64,000 nt of DNA from Fibrobacteria bacterium (GCA_043732185.1 JAYTHY010000023.1:40880-104879), one strand, 5' to 3'; shown: positions 24,447 through 64,000, counted from the first letter of the stretch. Program-made: numbers and translations. The notes: generated by a model not told the origin, from the sequence alone.

Positions 24447-24659
24447 ATGCCCCCGACTGCTCAGAAGCTGAATAAAACACTCATTCTGGATAGAGTCCAG
24501 TGCATTTCCTGCGCGGGCTGCGTGGGAACCTGTCCGGATTTGGCCCTGGATATGTTCGGCGTGGACTTGCAGGTATTCCAGGATAAATGCACCTATTGCA
24601 CCATCTGTGTGCGATTTTGTCCCGTAGGAGCACTTTCAATTGAAAGATCGAAAGTATGA
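24447..24659 (+). CDS. 2x[4Fe-4S] ferredoxin
   Basis: CISCAGCVGTCP and CTYCTICVRFCP. Confidence 0.92.
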   Translation: MPPTAQKLNKTLILDRVQCISCAGCVGTCPDLALDMFGVDLQVFQDKCTYCTICVRFCPVGALSIERSKV

Positions 24660-54489: not shown

Positions 54490-55512
54490 ATGATCATGCA
54501 CACACTTACTCTCTCAATTCTCACGAAACCTTTACGAGCCATTTATAAATGGTTGGATAATGATGCACCGCAGGGAGTAACCTTCGGTCCCGAGGACCGA
54601 AAAGTGAGTCACCTCCGGCTTGCCCCTTTTTGGGCACTCCATCTTATATGTTTCGGCGTATTTTTTGTGGGATACAGTCCTGTAGCCATAACCGTTGCCG
54701 TGTTCCTGTACTTTGTGCGCATGCATGCCATCACAGGTTGGTACCACCGCTATTTCGCACACCGCACCTTCAAAACGGGTCGGGTGATGCAATTCATTTT
54801 CGCCTTCATTGGCAATACCTCCGCCCAGCGCGGGGCTTTGCATTGGGCATCCCATCATCGGGACCATCACCGTTATTCGGATCAACCGCAGGATCCCCAT
54901 TCCCCCAAACAACATGGATTTTGGATCAGCCACACACTCTGGTTTTCCAAACGTGAAAACTCCACTGCCCAAAGTAGAAAGCTGAAAGACTTCGCTGCAT
55001 TTCCAGAGCTGATGTTCATTGACCGCTTTGACTTTGTGGCACCCTTCTGCCTCGGCCTGACATTATTCTTTTTCGGTAAAACTTTGCATCGATTCGCCCC
55101 CGGTCTGCACACTAGTGGCGCACAAATGGTTATTTGGGGATTTTTTATTTCCACCATACTCCTTTACCACGGCACGTTTTCGATCAATTCGTTTGGGCAT
55201 ATTATTGGGCGTAAACGTTTCGAAACAGGTGATGACAGCAAGAACAGCTTGATACTCGCGCTCATTACTTTGGGGGAAGGATGGCATAACAACCATCACC
55301 ATTATGCCAACTCGGTTCGACAGGGTTTCCGCTGGTATGAAATCGACATCTCCTATTATATCCTACTGGGATTTTCAAAAATCGGGCTAGTATGGAATTT
55401 GAAACCGGTTCCCAAACAATACCTCAGTAACCTTGAAACACCCCTGCCTAATTCAATTTCGATCAGTCAACAGGTGCCATTAAAGGAGGTGCCCTTCAAG
55501 AAAGCAGCATAG
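54490..55512 (+). CDS. Delta-9 type acyl-CoA/acyl-lipid desaturase
   Basis: His boxes HRYFAH, HRDHH, GEGWHNNHH. Confidence 0.93.
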   Translation: MIMHTLTLSILTKPLRAIYKWLDNDAPQGVTFGPEDRKVSHLRLAPFWALHLICFGVFFVGYSPVAITVAVFLYFVRMHAITGWYHRYFAHRTFKTGRVMQFIFAFIGNTSAQRGALHWASHHRDHHRYSDQPQDPHSPKQHGFWISHTLWFSKRENSTAQSRKLKDFAAFPELMFIDRFDFVAPFCLGLTLFFFGKTLHRFAPGLHTSGAQMVIWGFFISTILLYHGTFSINSFGHIIGRKRFETGDDSKNSLILALITLGEGWHNNHHHYANSVRQGFRWYEIDISYYILLGFSKIGLVWNLKPVPKQYLSNLETPLPNSISISQQVPLKEVPFKKAA

Positions 55513-55559
55513 GTTACTTTCAAAAAGCCATTCAGGATCTTACGGCTGGACCTTTAAAA

Positions 55560-56549
55560 TCATTTTGGCATTTTCATTATTTCGCCAAATACTTCACCTA
55601 AAATATCGGCAATATTTTTAGCCAGGCTACTAACATACCCAAACGGATCACGACGAATTCCTTTTTCTTCTTCTCCCACAAGATAAAATAGCCCAGTTAA
55701 GGCCCGATCCGTCGTCCACGTCCCAAGGCTAACGGTTTCGATAGGTTTATAACCGATGGGTTTCAACGCGTTGATTTGCAAAGCCGAGACACTAGCCACC
55801 ACCACATTCTTGTTCCATGAAGTCTGAAATGCGACCATGCTGTTGTATCGAGTTAGGCTGGAATTATACAAAGACCGGAAATCCGTCCAATACTTGGTTA
55901 AAGGCACCAGGGTCAAAGTAGAATCGACCAAGGGTGTGTACGCGAGTATCAAGGGATGAAAAGTTTTCCCATTCAAGTACGTGGTAGCGGCCGAACTGTC
56001 TGCACTATTCAAAAGAGTCAAACCATCGGATATGGTCATGCCAAAAATGACGTCCTTGAAAATTGGGACGGATCTCGGCGCGGCGTATTCGGCAGCTCGG
56101 TTCATATAAAGGACCACTGAATCACCGATACCTTTAAGCCCGGTGATGTCCTTTAGTAGGCTGTTCGAGGCAGTCAAATTGCTGGTAAAAGAACTGTTGT
56201 CCAGGCCCGCCGAGAGGTCAACAATGCTCTGCATCGCTTGCAGCTCAGAGGCAAAAGGAGCGACCATGGCTGCCAACTTTTCAACAGCCTTCAAAGCAGA
56301 ATCTGCCTCAACGGGCAGTACTATTTTGATGACCTTATGTGTGAGATACCCATTTAACTTGGATGCTGCGGCTGCGCTGGAATCGATACCTACTTCCAAA
56401 GCCGTTTTCAAGCCAAGCACGACCTTGTCTTCGAGGGTAAGCCCATTGGTTCCATGATTGGGATCTCCGATAAGGTCGTCAAGGGTACAAGAGCCAAACA
56501 ACATCGCTGTAAAAAGGAAGGCCGTATATTTGATTTTTGAAAAATGCAT
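55560..56549 (-). CDS. DUF4197-family lipoprotein
   Basis: Lipobox FGSC; GLKTAL, MNRAAE.A, ALTGLF..GEEEKGIRRDP. Confidence 0.8.
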   Translation of the reverse strand: MHFSKIKYTAFLFTAMLFGSCTLDDLIGDPNHGTNGLTLEDKVVLGLKTALEVGIDSSAAAASKLNGYLTHKVIKIVLPVEADSALKAVEKLAAMVAPFASELQAMQSIVDLSAGLDNSSFTSNLTASNSLLKDITGLKGIGDSVVLYMNRAAEYAAPRSVPIFKDVIFGMTISDGLTLLNSADSSAATTYLNGKTFHPLILAYTPLVDSTLTLVPLTKYWTDFRSLYNSSLTRYNSMVAFQTSWNKNVVVASVSALQINALKPIGYKPIETVSLGTWTTDRALTGLFYLVGEEEKGIRRDPFGYVSSLAKNIADILGEVFGEIMKMPK

Positions 56550-56613
56550 GCTACTCCGATGGTTACCTAAAGAGTAAAAAACCAGACTGTTGATTGAAAA
56601 AAAATACCTACTT

Positions 56614-57702
56614 CTATGGTAAATCTGTGGGTCGCTGGAAATCGGGATTCATTGCGATTGTACTGTCGGTCAAAGTAAGCAAAAAGGCTAGTACAAACTG
56701 GATTTCCTGTTCACTCAATGGGTATTTAGTTCTCCCTGGAACCAATGAGTCCACTGTCCGCGAAGGCTTCCCCCCAGCGCTATAATGCTCCAAGGTCTCC
56801 TCAAGTGAAAAAAATCGCCCATCGTGCATAAACGGTCGGGTCAACATTAAGTTGCGCAGTGTTGGAGTGCGGAATTTTCCATCATCTTCCGGATTGCCCG
56901 TAATAGCACCCCTGCCTGTGCCATCAATGTTTTCTTCAATCCCGTTGTTATGAAATTGGAGGTCCGTGAAAAGAATACCGGAATGGCAGTGAAAACAACC
57001 GGTCTTCTCTTGGTTGAAAAGGGCGTAACCGGTAGACTCCGCTTCCGTGAGGACCACTTCACCTCGTAAGAATCGATCAAATTTTGAGTTGAAAGAAATC
57101 AGCGTGCGCTCAAATTGGGCTAACGCCTGGACTACTTTTTCCTGGGTGATGGGGCCCTCGTTAAACGCCGCGGCAAACAAGTCAGGATAGTGCTTATCTT
57201 TCGACAATTTGAGAATCGCCTGATCCCATGGTAAATTCATTTCCATGGGATGCGGCACTGGAGCTCTTGCCTGATCTTCAAGTGTGGCCGCCCGGCCATC
57301 CCAAAAAAAATTGGGAAACCAAATTGAATTCATTAATGTAGGCGTGTTACGAAGTCCAGGAAGCCCTTTGGCGCCGAAACTGAAATTGAATGTGTCGGAA
57401 AAAGCACGCGAAGCCAAATGGCAATCGGAACAGGATTGTATGTTCTGATCCGATAGGATTTTATCAAAAAACAAACGTCTACCAAGTGCGATTCCTGGCT
57501 TGGTTAGAGGGTTATCATCGGGCATAGCCGGCAACCCAGTGACGCCAAGATCCACTGGCTCAGGGTGAGCGCGAACAGGTTGTAAAGACTGGTTTTCCAG
57601 ACAACCCGATACCGATAGCAGCAGGGTAGCGGACAGGAAAACGCCTCGCCCCCAGTTACCATAAAACTGGCTAAACGGCAAAAATCTTAGTCTTTTTCCC
57701 AC
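56614..57702 (-). CDS. Diheme cytochrome c peroxidase/MauG/MbnH-superfamily lipoprotein (start uncertain)
   Basis: CSDCH and CFHCH; FWDGRA; FRTPTLRN..PFMHDG; VSGC lipobox. Confidence 0.88.
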   Translation of the reverse strand: MGKRLRFLPFSQFYGNWGRGVFLSATLLLSVSGCLENQSLQPVRAHPEPVDLGVTGLPAMPDDNPLTKPGIALGRRLFFDKILSDQNIQSCSDCHLASRAFSDTFNFSFGAKGLPGLRNTPTLMNSIWFPNFFWDGRAATLEDQARAPVPHPMEMNLPWDQAILKLSKDKHYPDLFAAAFNEGPITQEKVVQALAQFERTLISFNSKFDRFLRGEVVLTEAESTGYALFNQEKTGCFHCHSGILFTDLQFHNNGIEENIDGTGRGAITGNPEDDGKFRTPTLRNLMLTRPFMHDGRFFSLEETLEHYSAGGKPSRTVDSLVPGRTKYPLSEQEIQFVLAFLLTLTDSTIAMNPDFQRPTDLP

Positions 57703-57795
57703 GCTTACTTCATACCTATTAATGCCGAAATTGTACCGACTTGAAAAGCGCTTTTGCCTTATTTTAGGCAGCAGCCCCATTGACTAGGAGAATAT

Positions 57796-59532
57796 ATGCG
57801 CACAGGCCGACTTTCGCTTTGGTCTTTTTTTGGATTAGGTCTGGCCCCCATTTGTATTCTTGGGCAGGCCATGCTCACCGCACCACATCCAAGCTGGGAT
57901 CTGCACAATATGCGCCCTCCCAATTTCCTTCTCCGTAATGGAGGTTTGGATTTCTTATCAGATGGCCGACTCGTCGCCAGTGATTGGGGCAGCGATATGA
58001 CTGTTACCGGAAAGGTGTACATCATCTCCGGAATGGGTGGCAAAGACAGTTCCGGCGTCACATACAAAGTGTTCGCACAAGGCCTAAAAGAGCCACTTGG
58101 TCTAAAAGTTGTAAACGATACGATTTACGTCATGTGTAAAGATGGATTGTACATGCTACCCGATGCCGACAAGAATGGGCTAGCAGATGAAAATCGAAAG
58201 ATTGTTAGCGGCTGGAGCTATCCGCCACGACTAGATTCAGCCAAAACTGAACGTTGGCATCTATTTGCGTTTGGTCTGCTGTACAAAGATGGCTTTTTCT
58301 ACGGAACCCTAGCCTCTGAGTATCCGCCAAGTGGGACTCAGGGCAGAGACCGTGGAAGTTTGCTTAAAATGGATCCCAAAAAGAATACTTACGAAATTAT
58401 TGTTGGCGGATTAAGAACCCCAAATGGAATTGCCTTTGGACCAGAGGGGGAAATATTTGGAACCGACAATCAGGGGCATTGGCTACCCGCCAATAAGTTG
58501 AATCATTTTGTTAAGGGTCGGAATTACGGAATGCACAATGACACAACCAATCCATATGACATTTACAAAGTGCCACAGTCGCCACCTGTAGTGTGGTTGG
58601 AGGAAAGTCAAATAGGCCTTTCCCCCAGCCAGCCCATCTATATCACCAAGGGACCTTACATGGGCCAGTTCTTTGTTGGGGATGTCAGTTTTGGCGGACT
58701 ACAGCGAATTTTTGTGGAAAAAATTGGTGGGGAGTACCAAGGTGTGGTTTTCAAATTTGCTGGCGGCTTTGAAGCTGGAACCATTAGGTTGGTATGGGGA
58801 CCGGATGGCGCCCTTTATGTGGGCCAAATCGGCAACGGTGACACCAACTGGGGATGGCAAAATAGAAAGTATGGTCTAAGTAAATTGATTGACAATGGAA
58901 CTTCAACCTTTGAAATGTTGGCTGTACGTTCGCGTAAAAATGGAATGGAAGTGGAGTTCACTGAACCTGTATCATCTGCCAGTGCCGTCGCAGCAAATTT
59001 CACTGTTGAGACCTGGACCCAGACACCTCAAGAGGGATATGGTGCCGGGAACCTACAGAATAGGCACAACCTTACAGTGGCTTCTGTCTCTCTCTCGACG
59101 GATAAGAAAAGTGTTTTCCTACAAATCAACGGCTTGACCCCAAATTATGTAGTTCATCTTAACGCACCAAATATTCGTTCCGCAACTGCCAAAGTGCCTT
59201 GGGCCTCGGAAGCCTGGTATACGCTTAATAAAATTTCACCTTCCTCCGCCTTCGATCCCACCGTATTCATTGATCCCAAATTACGCAGCATGGACGCGTT
59301 GTCCACTGACTTTAAAGTTTACCGGGACCAAACGGGTATACTTGCTGAAATTCCTTTCCATGGGAACTCGACCATCGCTGTGCAGGATCTGCAAGGCCGG
59401 ACCTTGGCCACGGGCAGAACAATGCATCCCGGTAGCATTCGGTTTTCAACGGAAGGCTTTTCAAGAGGAACTTATTTTGTCCGAGTGTTAGTCGATGGCC
59501 ATCGGTACAGCCATTCTATCAATTTGATGTAA
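57796..59532 (+). CDS. Secreted beta-propeller (sorbosone-dehydrogenase-like) protein with Ig-like domain and T9SS-like C-terminal domain
   Basis: GLKEPLGL, GGLRTPNG, TDNQGHW; C-terminal DLQGR...GTYFVRV. Confidence 0.65.
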   Translation: MRTGRLSLWSFFGLGLAPICILGQAMLTAPHPSWDLHNMRPPNFLLRNGGLDFLSDGRLVASDWGSDMTVTGKVYIISGMGGKDSSGVTYKVFAQGLKEPLGLKVVNDTIYVMCKDGLYMLPDADKNGLADENRKIVSGWSYPPRLDSAKTERWHLFAFGLLYKDGFFYGTLASEYPPSGTQGRDRGSLLKMDPKKNTYEIIVGGLRTPNGIAFGPEGEIFGTDNQGHWLPANKLNHFVKGRNYGMHNDTTNPYDIYKVPQSPPVVWLEESQIGLSPSQPIYITKGPYMGQFFVGDVSFGGLQRIFVEKIGGEYQGVVFKFAGGFEAGTIRLVWGPDGALYVGQIGNGDTNWGWQNRKYGLSKLIDNGTSTFEMLAVRSRKNGMEVEFTEPVSSASAVAANFTVETWTQTPQEGYGAGNLQNRHNLTVASVSLSTDKKSVFLQINGLTPNYVVHLNAPNIRSATAKVPWASEAWYTLNKISPSSAFDPTVFIDPKLRSMDALSTDFKVYRDQTGILAEIPFHGNSTIAVQDLQGRTLATGRTMHPGSIRFSTEGFSRGTYFVRVLVDGHRYSHSINLM

Positions 59533-59555
59533 TTTCATTCGGCATTTAAGGAATT

Positions 59556-59585
59556 AAAAAAGGGCCCCCCGGAAAGGGAGCCCTT
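59556..59585 (-). terminator. Terminator of the original tRNA-Gly gene
   Basis: Minus strand GGGCTCCC-TTTCCG-GGGGGCCC-TTTTTT directly after CCA; the stem is perfect (G-U) only on the minus strand. Confidence 0.8.
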
Positions 59586-59629
59586 GGAGCGGATTATCGG
59601 ATTCGAACCGACGACCATTTGCTTGGGAA
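59585..59629 (-). pseudogene. Displaced 3' part of tRNA-Gly(CCC), i.e. an att junction
   Basis: TTCCCAA-GCAAA-TGGTC-GTCGG-TTCGAAT-CCGAT-AATCCGC-T-CCA; D arm and 5' anticodon strand missing. Confidence 0.88.
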
Positions 59630-59669
59630 TAGCTTGGTCCGCCATAAGATTTGCCTTTTTCCACGAAAA

Positions 59670-60749
59670 TCAACCTTTTTCGGTCATTTTCTCCGTGTGG
59701 GTGTCCACAGTGTGTCCACTCCCCGACCTAAATCTAATTAACTCCAGAGATTTTTTTCCAGATCGATGATAATAGGTGCGCAGCATATTAGTCTTCCAGC
59801 CTGCCACTGCTAATACCACTTGTTCGGGTGTTCCTCCATCTAAAAGGTCAGTGGCCGACATGTGCCGAGTATCATGGAAATGAAGATCCGGAACTCCCGC
59901 AAGTTGCTTGCACCTTTTCCAAGATTTTTTGAAATCCCCCAGTGGTCTGTATGTGCCCCTTACGAGCTTGTAGAACAGGTATGGGCATTCAGGTGGGAGG
60001 GTACGAAAATACTCTACCATATCCGGAGGTATAGGCTTCCAGATTCCTTCATCGTTTTTGGTCGTTCCGTTCCGAACCCGTATGCTATTGTGAAACAAGT
60101 CCAACTGATCCTTGCACATTCCAATCAATTCGGATTTCCGGCAAGGAACCTGTAAGGCATAATTTGTGATGGCCTCCAGATGAGGTGCCTCCTGCCTAAT
60201 TACGTTGAACAAAATGAGCCTCTGCTGTTCAGTTAGAACCTGATCTCGGGAGACCTCCTTCAGCTTTGGAAAACGGGATTTCGTGATGGGATTTTTAACT
60301 ATCAAATCCAAATCCACGGCAATATTAAAAACCGTTCTGATTAGAGTAATGTACCGATTAAACGATGCATTCGCGGGGATTTTCCCGGTTTTGCGTCTAG
60401 GCGTAAGCCTGTACAATCTCATGTATTTATCAAGCTTTTCGGCGAAAAGGGGGATTGGGACGCTCCCAAGGTCAGCCATTAGAGTGCCGCATTTACTGGC
60501 TTGGCCGCCGGAAATTTGATAGCGCCTGTCCTGGTACAGCTTCAATAAATCACCAAAAGTGCTCAGGTTTTCGGGTACACTCAATCCATCCTCTGACTTG
60601 AGAGATTTTCTCAATTCAAAGTAACGATCGTGGGCTTGGATACGGGTACCTAAAAAGGTTTCTCGTTTCCGAATTTCCTTGCCGGACTTTCTGACCCGAA
60701 CGTCAAGCAGCCATTTATTTGGACCTAATTTGTCGATATTGACACCCAT
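59670..60749 (-). CDS. int: Tyrosine recombinase/integrase
   Basis: Catalytic set R (CRKSE), K (TKN), HxxR (FHDTRH), W (AGW), Y (RTYYH). Confidence 0.92.
   Translation of the reverse strand: MGVNIDKLGPNKWLLDVRVRKSGKEIRKRETFLGTRIQAHDRYFELRKSLKSEDGLSVPENLSTFGDLLKLYQDRRYQISGGQASKCGTLMADLGSVPIPLFAEKLDKYMRLYRLTPRRKTGKIPANASFNRYITLIRTVFNIAVDLDLIVKNPITKSRFPKLKEVSRDQVLTEQQRLILFNVIRQEAPHLEAITNYALQVPCRKSELIGMCKDQLDLFHNSIRVRNGTTKNDEGIWKPIPPDMVEYFRTLPPECPYLFYKLVRGTYRPLGDFKKSWKRCKQLAGVPDLHFHDTRHMSATDLLDGGTPEQVVLAVAGWKTNMLRTYYHRSGKKSLELIRFRSGSGHTVDTHTEKMTEKG
59701..59719. repeat. Direct repeat, candidate integrase arm-type sites
   Basis: GTGTCCAC x2 with 11-bp period, about 70 bp from the att core. Confidence 0.6.
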
Positions 60750-60814
60750 TGCGAATTCCTTTCGTCAATGGATATCCCTGGCGGATAAGAGAAAATATAG
60801 TTTAAGTGCAGGTC

Positions 60815-61063
60815 TCAATGGCCAGCTCCCCTCTTCGGTTTTTCGAGGAGAATTTCGCCAGTAATAATTCGTTTTTGAATCTCCACCCATTCATACCTCC
60901 ACACCCTACCAACTTTTACCTGTCCAGGGATCCTTCGTTCCTGAGTATGTTTTTCCACCCACTTAAGGGAGATACCCAATCTCTCCGCCAGTTGTTTGGG
61001 GGTAATAAGCGATCCCAGGTCCATCCCATCCATTCCCGGCGAGGCATTTTGATATTGATCCAT
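60815..61063 (-). CDS. Excisionase-like HTH protein
   Basis: LITPKQLAERLGIS..W....IPG.VKVGRVWRY; directly upstream of int. Confidence 0.85.
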   Translation of the reverse strand: MDQYQNASPGMDGMDLGSLITPKQLAERLGISLKWVEKHTQERRIPGQVKVGRVWRYEWVEIQKRIITGEILLEKPKRGAGH

Positions 61064-61067
61064 TGGA

Positions 61068-62012
61068 TTACCTAACCCCTAACAGATCTTCAAAAGCTGC
61101 CGTGGTTCTAAGTTCCCCGGCCCGCTTCCTCGACAAGTCATAAATCAAAGTTCCCATATGGGCCCAGACCACTTCCATCTCCAGCTTTTTCACAGTCAAC
61201 TCATCCAGAGTATTTTCAACACCCTTCAAGTCCGACAATGTTTTCCCCAATTCCTGCGCGTTTACATTCTTCGCGTCCTTCAGGGCTTCGAGCGTCTCAC
61301 GATAACGAATCATTCTTTCCTGTTGCACCCGTCTTAGCGCGGCAATTTGCGCCTGAGCCCTGGATCCGGCCAGAATGGTGGCATCGCGCACCTTGCCCTC
61401 GCCGGTAACTTGCATATAAGCATAAGCATCACGCAGGCGCGAACGCTCCAGGTCTCCATGGATTTCATTTTCTTCTTTGCTGCCGCCAAGAACTGGGGCA
61501 ACCCAATTTGGATCGGACCGATAAAGTCCAGAGTTAAATTTATAGAACTCGGATACCGAGGGATGATTTAAGGGTAGATACGGGGCCAGGTGCCCGCCGA
61601 TTCGCTCGGCATAACGCTCCTGCCGATACATCAAATCATCAAAGGCACGACTTTCATCCCATAGCAGGTAATCGGTCTTATCGAAAATCGCTTCCAGATC
61701 CTGGAGCTTCTGATCCCAGCGTCCCGGTTCGGATACCAGCTTTACGACCCTCTTCCCCACCAAGTCCCAACTTTTCAGATTCCGACGCACCCAGGCTTTT
61801 TGATCGTCCAGAGTCTGCACCATGGCCCGCGTGTATTGAATCGACATATAGGCATCGCGCACGGTATTTCGGACCTTGACATAGGTCAAGGCCAAGGTAG
61901 TGACGATGCCGTTCTCTTCCTTAGTACCAGGTTGGCTGGTGGTTGGCTGTAACATGTCCTCGGCCTGAGCCAGGCCGAAACAAAGGAAGGTTCCAAATAT
62001 TAGGGTTCTCAT
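61068..62012 (-). CDS. Exported, largely helical hypothetical protein
   Basis: Signal peptide ending AQA; GGAGG RBS; coiled-coil character. Confidence 0.75.
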   Translation of the reverse strand: MRTLIFGTFLCFGLAQAEDMLQPTTSQPGTKEENGIVTTLALTYVKVRNTVRDAYMSIQYTRAMVQTLDDQKAWVRRNLKSWDLVGKRVVKLVSEPGRWDQKLQDLEAIFDKTDYLLWDESRAFDDLMYRQERYAERIGGHLAPYLPLNHPSVSEFYKFNSGLYRSDPNWVAPVLGGSKEENEIHGDLERSRLRDAYAYMQVTGEGKVRDATILAGSRAQAQIAALRRVQQERMIRYRETLEALKDAKNVNAQELGKTLSDLKGVENTLDELTVKKLEMEVVWAHMGTLIYDLSRKRAGELRTTAAFEDLLGVR

Positions 62013-62015
62013 GGC

Positions 62016-63683
62016 CTACATCCTCCTCAAGAGAATATCCACGGGTGTTTCCGGGCAGGTCATGCCAGGTGGCCTTTCCTTGCCCTTGGTCCGTTCAAAT
62101 TGAAACTCGGCTTCGAGCGCGCGTTGCTCCGCCATGGCTTTTTCTTGCGCATCTTCCGGACGATTAAACCGTAGTTCGAGCCGCCGGTAAAAACCGGCCG
62201 CCTTAGCGAGATTGACAAGATTGCACGTTGGTACACTTTGACTGAGAATCCGCAGGGCCTGAGAGCGCGTCAGCTTGAAAAACGAGTCCTCCAGGTCCGG
62301 GCAGCCCTTCCAGAAATAGTCGCCATAGGGAAAGTCCACACTGCGCACTATGGCCATCTGCCCGGGAAGGATCCGGTCCTCTTCCACTACGGTGCGAACC
62401 TCCCATCCTCCATCCACGGCCACGCGTTCCTGCCTCACCTGCTTCCATCTGGGATCCGTCGGCTCCAGGGGAAGCACATCGGGTAGCGTAACGTCCAATC
62501 CTTCCTTTACGGAAAATGCCAGCTTGCCGATAATACGATCCTGAAAAGCCAAGCCCGGACACCGAGTCTCCAAGTTTTCCAGAAAATCTTTCTCGGCATC
62601 ATCACGGGCAAAAGGCAAAAGCAAGGCTTTCTGTAATCCTGTCCAATCATCGAAAGAGGCAATGCGGAAAGCCATGGGTGGATCATGGGCAAAACCAGAC
62701 CCACCCTCCCCTTCCGCCTGTATCTCCAAGTTCACGGACCAGACCGGGTCTGGGATGGAAGCCGGCCAAAGGAATTGGCCGGAAAAATAAACCGAAGCAG
62801 AATCATCCAGCACGGGATTCAGGTAAGGCTTTAAATCCACATTGCCGGGATTATCAATAGCACGCTGCCTAAAAGTTACCGCCTCAGTTTCAGAGAGACT
62901 GATTTCCTTCATTACCCTTCCAGTGGCAGGGTGCCGGGGATGCACCACGATTTTCGGAAAGAGGTGTAGATTCCAGAATGATTTTGTGGAGGGCTTAAAC
63001 TGCATGGCTGCTTCATTCACCACGATATGGCATTCGGTATAGGTGTCATTGCAGGATTCCGGATAGGGTTCATCGGGCGGTGGATTGGGATCCACACACC
63101 AATGGTTTTCGCAAAGATCCTTTTCCTCCTTATCCTGCAGCCCAGCGGGCCTGGATGCATAGCATTCAGGCAGATCAAAAAACCATTGATAGGCGGAAGG
63201 AGTCCGGGTTGGGAGCACAGCGGATCCGTTTATGACATAGTGGTTATACCGCAGGGTGCCGGATAGTCGCGCCAGCTCGGCATCGCAGCTATAGGCTGTA
63301 TCGGGAAAAAGCTGTTTGGTTGCTGAAAAGAGTCGGCTTCCCCTAATCACATTTTTTCGAAGCTCAATACCAATCGTATCCAAAGCTTCGGTCGTGGAAA
63401 GACAAAAGCGCCCGGCGAGGTTGGCATAGCGCATATCCGCCGTCCCATCCTGGTTGAACTTCGCAACGATGACGGACGAAGCCCCAAAATCCGAGATGGA
63501 ACGGACGATATGACTTTCTTCCGTAGGCCCATTCACAAAGACCCAGGTCTGCCCCACCATCGGCAGGTCCTGGGCATTCATCAGGGATGGGAAAAGTATT
63601 CTCAGTCCCACCAGGACAAAAAAAAGACCGAGGCCCATCACCGAGTTTGATTTTAAAAAGTTGAACCGGTATGCTGTATCCAT
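62016..63683 (-). CDS. Exported Cys-rich hypothetical protein
   Basis: 555 aa; hydrophobic N terminus ending MNA; 11 Cys. Confidence 0.75.
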   Translation of the reverse strand: MDTAYRFNFLKSNSVMGLGLFFVLVGLRILFPSLMNAQDLPMVGQTWVFVNGPTEESHIVRSISDFGASSVIVAKFNQDGTADMRYANLAGRFCLSTTEALDTIGIELRKNVIRGSRLFSATKQLFPDTAYSCDAELARLSGTLRYNHYVINGSAVLPTRTPSAYQWFFDLPECYASRPAGLQDKEEKDLCENHWCVDPNPPPDEPYPESCNDTYTECHIVVNEAAMQFKPSTKSFWNLHLFPKIVVHPRHPATGRVMKEISLSETEAVTFRQRAIDNPGNVDLKPYLNPVLDDSASVYFSGQFLWPASIPDPVWSVNLEIQAEGEGGSGFAHDPPMAFRIASFDDWTGLQKALLLPFARDDAEKDFLENLETRCPGLAFQDRIIGKLAFSVKEGLDVTLPDVLPLEPTDPRWKQVRQERVAVDGGWEVRTVVEEDRILPGQMAIVRSVDFPYGDYFWKGCPDLEDSFFKLTRSQALRILSQSVPTCNLVNLAKAAGFYRRLELRFNRPEDAQEKAMAEQRALEAEFQFERTKGKERPPGMTCPETPVDILLRRM

Positions 63684-63691
63684 AAACTACC

Positions 63692-64000
63692 CTATAGGCT
63701 GAAATTAAGACCTAATCCATAGCCCTGATTGGAGGCGAGGAAGGTCAAACACAGAACTTGGACTTTGAAGGAGTAATAAAGACCAATATTTGAGGTGGTC
63801 CCAGATCCAAATGCCGTTTTATTTATCCGGACCTGTTGCCAGAGTGAACCCATTTCAATTCCGGGACGGATGATGCCACTTCCAAGCAGAAAAAGATGCC
63901 CGCCATAGACACCGACAAAACTTGCAACCTTCTTTGAGTTCAAGGTACCCGAATCCCCTACACCCCAGGCAGGCATGGCCACCATCCCCCATTCGGAAAA
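63692..64000 (-). CDS. Partial hypothetical protein, possibly a small outer-membrane beta-barrel
   Basis: Frame open to window end; amphipathic strands ending GYGLGLNFSL. Confidence 0.55.
   Translation of the reverse strand, partial: FSEWGMVAMPAWGVGDSGTLNSKKVASFVGVYGGHLFLLGSGIIRPGIEMGSLWQQVRINKTAFGSGTTSNIGLYYSFKVQVLCLTFLASNQGYGLGLNFSL

Follow-up and report, generated by a model that had tools for sequence, protein, structure and literature searches.

Integrase-proximal end of a tRNA-Gly-borne element in an uncultured Fibrobacteria bacterium and the probable tail of its divergent type IV secretion operon

The Fibrobacterota are important polymer degraders, mostly uncultured and without genetic tools. 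Among the mobile elements described in other bacteria, the integrative and conjugative element (ICE) ICEclc of Pseudomonas uses tRNA-Gly genes as integration sites and may occur in two copies. Among the proteins of conjugative type IV secretion systems (T4SSs), VirB5 is about 220-260 aa long, and the F-type TraN is an outer-membrane protein of about 600 aa with about 22 conserved cysteines that acts in mating-pair stabilisation. According to PMC12857230, VirB5 docks on VirB6 and comes to lie at the pilus tip, several Gram-negative systems lack VirB5, and 'expanded' T4SSs carry subunits of unknown ancestry. A limited search of open-access full text returned no paper describing conjugative elements or T4SSs of the Fibrobacterota; in PMC3548315, Fibrobacter occurs only within a cited title. 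Here we analysed a stretch of 64,000 nt, hereafter the window, from the genome of an uncultured Fibrobacteria bacterium (G000:C23:40880-104879, the window end being the end of contig C23). The block of genes at that end consists of an integrase gene (int), an excisionase-type gene (xis) and three genes that we call p314, p555 and barrel. We read it, with a probability of about 0.7, as the integrase-proximal (attR) end of an ICE inserted in a tRNA-Gly(CCC) gene, in which barrel, p555 and p314 would be the last three genes of the mating-pair-formation operon.

Gene order downstream of VirB10 in Fibrobacterota

The ORF listing placed barrel, p555, p314, xis and int one after another on the minus strand, with gaps of 8, 3, 4 and 65 nt. 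This is the arrangement given in an earlier note made from the sequence alone, which had suggested that the block may form the end of a highly divergent conjugation operon, with xis-int behind it, in a lineage whose transfer systems are little described. The barrel gene lacks its 5′ end because contig C23 stops inside it. A single contig of the related genome G016 has, in this order, an unknown protein of 391 aa, a TraG/VirD4 coupling protein (TraG-D_C 1e-11, T4SS-DNA_transf 7.9e-9), RadC, ArdC and SSB; then a TrbC pilin, a 383-aa protein, VirB4 and proteins of 1016, 410 (p410), 227, 275, 2733 (Big_13), 150, 242, 312 (p312) and 359 (p359) aa; and last three TrbL/VirB6 paralogues, a 218-aa protein (p218), CagX/VirB9, TrbI/VirB10, a 149-aa protein (p149), barrel, p555, p314, xis, int and tRNA-Gly(GCC). 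T4SS homologues in the relatives scored 40.6 bits for TrbC (cut-off 27.9), 81 bits for VirB4 (P-loop_TraG) and 49.3 bits for TrbI (cut-off 35), and one of the three G016 TrbL paralogues reached 37.4 bits (cut-off 25.9). The best NCBIfam match of VirB4 was F-type TraC, at 202 bits, far under the cut-off of 567.

The order VirB6, p218, VirB9, VirB10, then p149 or two other genes, then barrel, p555 and p314 was conserved, and VirB9/VirB10 preceded the trio in seven of the eight loci with at least 3 kb of upstream sequence (G016, G002, G007:C90, G010, G014, G008 and G132; no barrel ORF was called in G014). The earlier note had suggested a synteny search for the 314-aa/555-aa pair, and the pair follows VirB10 in these seven loci. 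The window, C81, G001:C57, G007:C641, G088, G071 and G122 are cut at or near p555, were therefore uninformative and do not enter this count. In the congener G002, contig C100 carries the orthologue of the second G000 copy described below (C81; flanks 92-98% identical, element genes 87-100%), and its sequence runs past barrel into p149, VirB10, VirB9, p218 and two VirB6 genes. G132, a genome from a different family of the phylum with only 22-30% identity, keeps p410-p312-p359-VirB6-p218-VirB9-VirB10, two genes, and then barrel-p555-p314, with TrbI at 35.2 bits. Measured against G016, the identities of p314, p555, the barrel protein, VirB9 and VirB10 were 76, 66, 65, 77 and 59% in G002, 45, 40, 36, 43 and 34% in G008, and 30, 22, 24, 25 and 26% in G132. 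Judged by these values, the divergence of p314, p555 and the barrel protein tracks that of the core T4SS genes. Relatives of p555 were found in 8 of 61 relative genomes and in 13 of 296 genomes of the phylum, and in none of the 151 genomes of the largest family sampled.

All in all, the VirB6/VirB9/VirB10 synteny in seven of eight loci, together with the pilin, VirB4 and coupling protein of G016, supports the proposal of the earlier note: the genes are very probably the tail of the T4SS operon of an ICE, and barrel, p555 and p314 are probably components of that T4SS. A specific outer-membrane or pilus-tip role for the three is doubtful at present. The earlier note had named phage structural genes, or a rest of the element without T4SS genes, as outcomes that would speak against its proposal; the loci of the relatives carry T4SS genes and lack phage structural ones. 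We also considered a phage element as such and rejected it, since no phage structural family was found in any locus scanned.

Some further features of these operons were observed. The consecutive TrbL/VirB6 paralogues of G016 (L014, G016:C28, 11944-15784) measure 288, 337 and 654 aa. The third has a long extension, and the set recalls some T4SSs whose VirB6 genes are multiplied or extended. No VirB1, VirB5, VirB7 or VirB11 was recognised in the operon. In distant operons (L044 = G097:C71 9205-13895; L018 5309-7056; L043 5049-6795), two genes encoding proteins of about 236-249 and 333-392 aa replace p149, and the 392-aa G097 gene upstream of barrel matches Peptidase_C39_2 (1.2e-5). If the 333-347-aa proteins are homologous to the 392-aa one, they could be the cell-wall hydrolase of the system.

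An insertion in tRNA-Gly(CCC) and the position of xis-int

The earlier note had placed these genes inside a tRNA-Gly element. The insertion in tRNA-Gly(CCC) was confirmed by an empty site in a relative; the window itself holds only a 45-nt 3′ part of that gene, and no tRNA-Gly was called in it, ARAGORN finding only a tRNA-Cys and Rfam none in 55000-64000. The sole full tRNA-Gly(CCC) of the G000 assembly lies on contig C46, c[24576-24651]; over the 45 positions it shows 7 differences from the C23 remnant, including compensatory ones in the T-stem. In the congener G002 the empty site consists of four contiguous features, namely an orthologue (90%) of the 578-aa gene that flanks the remnant, an intact tRNA-Gly(CCC), NDK (97% identity with its counterpart to the right of the C46 tRNA) and a hexapeptide transferase (92%). 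In a three-way alignment, the 45-nt remnant on C23 and its terminator hairpin were identical to G002, the flank beyond them showing two mismatches, and the C46 tRNA was made up of a native upstream flank and 5′ part followed by a foreign 3′ part and foreign downstream DNA. A 12-nt core, TTCCCAAGCAAA (59618-59629), is common to both ends, and on the alignment the crossover falls within it. Because of the G002 empty site and the common TTCCCAAGCAAA, the C23 remnant is attR and the rebuilt C46 tRNA is attL of one insertion. No additional att copy was present elsewhere in the G000 assembly. The empty-site evidence comes from one informative relative, G002; in a related locus (L026), int is followed by a co-oriented fragment of tRNA-Gly(CCC). 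Two characters of ICEs are thus found at this locus, a site-specific recombinase at the element end and an att-bounded insertion with an empty site in one relative.

The integrase matched Phage_integrase of Pfam (4.1e-14; 53.2 bits, cut-off 27.1) and the PHROG 1 integrase (1.4e-37). The xis product reached 29.9 bits with HTH_17 (cut-off 27) and 23 bits with TIGR01764 'excise', below the cut-off of 28.8; its start codon is kept in five homologues. Between p314 and xis, gaps of 4, 0, 0, 4, 6 and 40 nt were measured in six loci, and the spacing was therefore 0-6 nt in five of the six, though xis is only 31-32% identical at the lowest. No minus-strand terminator-like site was detected between the two genes with scan models (sigma-70 promoter and terminator) that may not apply to Fibrobacterota. 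In most elements 0-6 nt separate p314 from xis, so that transcription reading through from the transfer operon probably turns on excision; in that way xis would probably be coupled to the expression of the operon. The xis-int pair lies downstream of p314 in 6 of the 10 loci with downstream DNA (the window, C81, G002, G016, G014 and G001); in G008 a topoisomerase and ParA follow p314 and there is no xis-int, and other genes follow p314 in G132, G122 and G088. From these counts, the trio is tied to the T4SS genes, and to xis-int in one subclade only.

Coordinates of the block and of its flank in the window
Feature	Position	Strand	Remarks
int, tyrosine recombinase, 359 aa	59670-60749	-	Pfam Phage_integrase
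xis, excisionase-type HTH protein, 82 aa	60815-61063	-	HTH_17
p314, 314 aa, predicted exported and all-helical	61068-62012	-	very probably the last T4SS-operon gene; family undescribed
p555, 555 aa, N-terminal membrane/signal segment, 10 conserved Cys	62016-63683	-	family undescribed
Barrel ORF, C-terminal 102 codons of a predicted exported, strand-rich protein of ~160 aa	63692-64000	-	runs off the window
attR, 45-nt native 3′ part of tRNA-Gly(CCC), anticodon loop to CCA	59585..59629	-	matches the empty site in G002:C13
Intrinsic-terminator-like hairpin and T-run of the native tRNA-Gly(CCC)	59560..59585	-	11-pair stem, then TTTTTT; chromosomal flank just outside the element
Left-flank gene (chromosomal), 578 aa	57796-59532	+	orthologue at the G002 empty site

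The 578-aa flank gene is one of a very large set of paralogues (13 matches in G000 and up to 23 in a congener, E≤1e-50). Another motif, GTGGACACnnnGTGGACAC, occurs in six copies in the genome, at 59700-59722 of the window (the 3′ end of int), C46:24448, C46:24061, C47:7640, C86:26139 and C107:1079. Outside the window the copies are non-coding and lie in a conserved AAAAAGTGGACACAAAGTGGACACCCC context downstream of tRNA genes, about 100-130 nt from tRNA-Gly(CCC) and tRNA-Ile and some 800 nt from tRNA-Thr. Its presence near both element ends had first been read as an arm-type integrase site; we do not use it as evidence, and the motif could be bound by related integrases or could mark other tRNA-borne islands.

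Three protein families, a second copy and cargo

The 555-aa protein contains 11 cysteines, the number given in the earlier note, of which 10 are invariant or almost invariant across 27 homologues. Both p555 and p314 carry an N-terminal hydrophobic segment (Kyte-Doolittle), and this segment and the conserved cysteines are the basis on which the two are predicted to be exported. The p555 family comprised 28 proteins at E≤1e-3 in a collection of 5.8 billion proteins, all of them unnamed and without Pfam, and the p314 family 38 proteins in the same collection. When 1.84 billion cluster representatives were searched exhaustively with a profile, 41 representatives of the p314 family were returned, and none of the 30 that were scanned had a real Pfam family. 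Four proteins of the barrel family were found; full-length homologues measure 150-179 aa and have a signal-like N-terminus, blocks rich in Gly and aromatic residues that look like strands, and the ending ...GLNFSL. As the earlier note had reported, no motif was recognised in the three proteins: they had no match in Pfam (p314 and p555 at E≤1), NCBIfam or PADLOC. Together with p149, which likewise gave nothing in PADLOC, they had no match in PHROGs, save p314 at E 0.0075 to a PHROG of unknown function. Sequence profile searches against the PDB (A1, A2, A3) gave nothing meaningful, the best match being a designed ice-binding protein at E 0.1. On the libraries searched, p314, p555 and the barrel protein come from families without known relatives.

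The AlphaFold2 model of p555 was fairly confident (pLDDT 79.8, pTM 0.67) and predicts a helix at the N-terminus and a helical hairpin at the C-terminus, with mixed alpha/beta domains, a Cys-rich stretch and a long beta-meander in between. Foldseek, which the earlier note had proposed for this protein, and VIA-align matched no solved chain in the PDB to it, and the ESM Atlas gave no usable match. The model of p314 is all-helical and of low confidence (pLDDT 62.5). For this protein the ESM Atlas gave only unnamed clusters; a look-alike cluster found by features (score 0.87) has PF07996 on 14% of its members, which is a lead only. The N-terminal ~95 aa of the p314 family were found to be related to p312 (hhalign probability 88%, E 2.8e-6; 73% against the single sequence), whose gene sits two places upstream of the VirB6 genes, and profile-profile comparison found the same region not related to p359. 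The prediction of a complex of p555 (38-555) with p314 (20-314) had a score of 0.10 and a mark of 0.32 and is evidence neither way.

A second, paralogous module was found in the same genome on C81:25360-29844 (int 361, xis 71, 320, 555, barrel), beside an intact tRNA-Gly(GCC) that is convergent with its integrase. Over 2913 nt, a stretch reaching from 20 nt within the 3′ end of p314 to both contig ends, the two contigs share 89% DNA identity; their last 77 nt are identical, and both break at the same base within the barrel gene. The proteins on the other side of this border are less alike, xis being 31-32% and int 53% identical. The break of homology at the p314/xis border therefore indicates that the recombination module was swapped and that p314 belongs to the transfer module. 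Between the two copies, dN/dS was 0.14 for p555 and 0.07 for p314, that is, purifying selection, and p555 and p314 are therefore real genes and not chance ORFs.

Beside attL, C46:1-24575 carries RND efflux genes (OEP, HlyD and AcrB-type), two multicopper oxidases, propeller proteins and several unknown proteins. This copper-resistance island lies within the same tRNA-Gly(CCC) insertion and is therefore probably cargo of the mobile element or of an element tandem. A further contig, G000 C34:5571-37764, carries a TrbC/VirB2 pilin, a VirB4 that is 88% identical to the G016 VirB4, and proteins of 1020 and 408 aa. This part of C34 is flanked by a 3864-aa Ig/lectin-like surface protein and by a 3586-aa polyketide synthase with a SnoaL-like protein, which may represent additional cargo of the element or an adhesin.

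Alternative readings and comparison with described systems

The following points weigh against the reading of the block as the end of an ICE with a T4SS operon. VirB6, VirB9, VirB10 and a coupling protein were not found in the G000 assembly, and both G000 copies (C23 and C81) end at a contig end inside the barrel gene; because the contigs stop there, the linkage to a T4SS in G000 is drawn from orthologous loci, above all G002:C100. The VirB4 and pilin of G000 are on C34, with no assembled link to C23, and in a search for k-mer overlaps between contig ends that could chain C23, C34 and C46, only C23 and C81 shared an end; most likely, the near-identical part of both copies collapsed in assembly or went unbinned. 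Two of the three G016 TrbL matches were below the cut-off (25.8 and 20.9 bits against 25.9), CagX/VirB9 was weak (20.1-24.6 bits against 34.2; TIGR02781 E 4.5e-4), and p218 was assigned to VirB8 by gene position alone. The eighth informative locus, G097, has a truncated p555-like gene (371 aa) and no VirB9/VirB10 within about 5 kb upstream. Finally, the relaxase families PF03432, PF07514 and PF08751 were each found in none of four element-bearing genomes, other relaxase families not having been searched.

The lack of these three relaxase families is also what one would expect if the T4SS served protein secretion, DNA release or uptake, or adhesion, with the element moving by other means, and the giant Ig-like or lectin-like surface proteins in or beside the gene set (2733 aa in G016, 3864 aa on C34) point the same way. 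However, the G016 TraG/VirD4 coupling protein directly follows the 391-aa protein, which has no Pfam, NCBIfam or PDB match and could be a relaxase of an unrecognised family; the ArdC anti-restriction protein, SSB and RadC of the same contig are typical of conjugative DNA transfer; and the insertion is bounded by att sites, absent from the congener, patchy in its distribution and present in two copies at two tRNA-Gly genes. We consider a T4SS not meant for conjugation decidedly unlikely. Unlikely too, by a slightly smaller measure, is a trio that belongs to the transfer module but stands outside the machine, as surface or entry exclusion proteins comparable to TraT/TraS or as adhesins for recipient recognition or mating-pair stabilisation comparable to TraN. 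In F-like plasmids the exclusion genes come late in the tra operon. The trio is likewise distal in the transfer operon and predicted to be exported, and p555 is Cys-rich with several variable stretches between its conserved blocks. Proteins of exclusion or recognition would nevertheless be expected to diversify, whereas the trio diverges at the rate of VirB9/VirB10 and not faster, dN/dS between the co-resident copies is 0.07-0.14, and the three genes persist in systems that share only 22-30% identity; in Pfam, neither TraN nor TraT was matched at E≤1.

That p555 could be a periplasmic enzyme, such as a cell-wall hydrolase replacing VirB1, and not a structural subunit is suggested by the absence of any recognised VirB1-like gene from the locus and by the many invariant His, Asp, Glu, Ser and Tyr residues of the protein (e.g., H240, H333-D334, D294-S295, E260). 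No hydrolase family (Pfam, NCBIfam) and no solved chain (Foldseek, VIA-align) matched it, however, and among the separate 333-392-aa genes that distant elements carry upstream of barrel, the one in G097, which matches Peptidase_C39_2, is a better candidate for that role. We regard an enzymatic p555 as very improbable. It is harder still to see the trio as ordinary cargo surface proteins that merely lie beside xis-int. No transfer motif is recognisable in them and elements of this sort carry cargo, such as the copper island of the same insertion; yet the trio stands directly after VirB10 in seven of eight informative loci, including the one at 22-30% identity, G008 keeps the pair without xis-int, and the homology of the two G000 copies breaks at the p314/xis border.

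We therefore return to the reading of barrel, p555 and p314 as the distal genes of a mating-pair-formation operon. In the mechanism that we propose, the three would be Sec-exported envelope proteins specific to a Fibrobacterota lineage of T4SSs and extra subunits of an 'expanded' VirB-like machine, of which they would most likely form the outer-membrane or surface part. The small strand-rich barrel protein could be the membrane anchor, p555 a disulfide-stabilised periplasmic or surface protein, and p314, a long-helix protein, may together with p312 take over the role of the absent VirB5-like protein. We consider p314 and p312 the best candidates for that role: PF07996 is absent from four element-bearing genomes, VirB5 docks on VirB6 according to PMC12857230, and the one hint from a tool is the weak lead of the p314 look-alike cluster. 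Read-through from the transfer operon would raise the excisionase, and perhaps the integrase, and so tie excision to the expression of the mating apparatus. Here we infer export, localisation, assembly with the T4SS, co-transcription with xis and the specific roles. More tentatively, and with less than even odds, barrel, p555 and p314, together with p312, p359, p149 and the 1016-aa protein, might mark an undescribed class of T4SS and conjugation confined to the Fibrobacterota, with its own outer-membrane or surface complex around a new-fold p555, a duplicated helical stand-in for VirB5 and a relaxase of an unrecognised family, which would drive ICEs that carry copper resistance through this uncultured lineage.

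What the locus offers is a delimited ICE (attL, attR and empty site) together with a transfer-machine gene set and at least three conserved, predicted-exported families without known relatives. With a confident model of p555 that has no solved look-alike, the role of the subunits of unknown ancestry of expanded T4SSs becomes testable in a new lineage. The element would also be a natural vehicle, with an integrase for tRNA-Gly, that could be adapted for genetics in the Fibrobacterota, and a copper-resistance island has been shown to sit within a mobile insertion.

We finally compared the locus with the described systems that it most resembles. Like ICEs of the ICEclc type, the element has a tyrosine integrase and xis at one end, enters the 3′ part of a tRNA-Gly gene and rebuilds the tRNA from a 3′ part that it carries, leaves a remnant direct repeat at the other end, is present in two copies at two tRNA-Gly genes in G000, and combines a T4SS with cargo (the copper island). 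Unlike in ICEclc, the integrase here adjoins the remnant (attR) and not the rebuilt tRNA, whereas in the C81/G016/G002 subtype it adjoins an intact tRNA; no relaxase was recognised here with the three Pfam families searched; and no NCBIfam family of the ICEclc/PFL_4xxx type (MPF-G) matched at E≤0.01 among 22 proteins scanned. The gene set resembles the 'minimized' MPF-T T4SSs (Agrobacterium VirB, R388 Trw and RP4 Trb) in the colinear pilin, VirB4, VirB6, VirB8 position, VirB9 and VirB10 and in its VirD4-type coupling protein. It differs from them in the three VirB6 paralogues, the 1016-aa and 2733-aa proteins and p312, p359, p149, barrel, p555 and p314, and no counterpart of their VirB1, VirB5, VirB7 and VirB11 was recognised. 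The many added genes fit the notion of an 'expanded' T4SS, as set out in PMC12857230.

The earlier note had likened p314 to the VirB5/TrbJ proteins and p555 to TraN, and neither analogy found support in a sequence or fold test. Like VirB5, TrbJ and TraC, p314 is predicted to be exported and long-helical, and its paralogue-like p312 lies near the usual position of virB5. In contrast to VirB5, p314 is about 310-340 aa long; PF07996 was matched neither by p314 (E≤1), nor by 30 distant relatives (E≤0.1), nor in the genomes G000, G002, G008 and G016 (E≤0.1), and VirB5 structures were absent from the best 50 VIA-align matches of the low-confidence p314 model. Similarly, p555 is close to the F-type TraN in size, predicted export, richness in cysteine and late position in the transfer operon, and gave no TraN profile match in Pfam (E≤1) or NCBIfam (E≤0.01). 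The element as a whole belongs to a known kind, the tRNA-gene ICEs that end in xis-int; its novelty lies in the lineage, in a T4SS gene set that is both divergent and expanded, and in three or more conserved families of predicted-exported proteins without relatives in the libraries searched.

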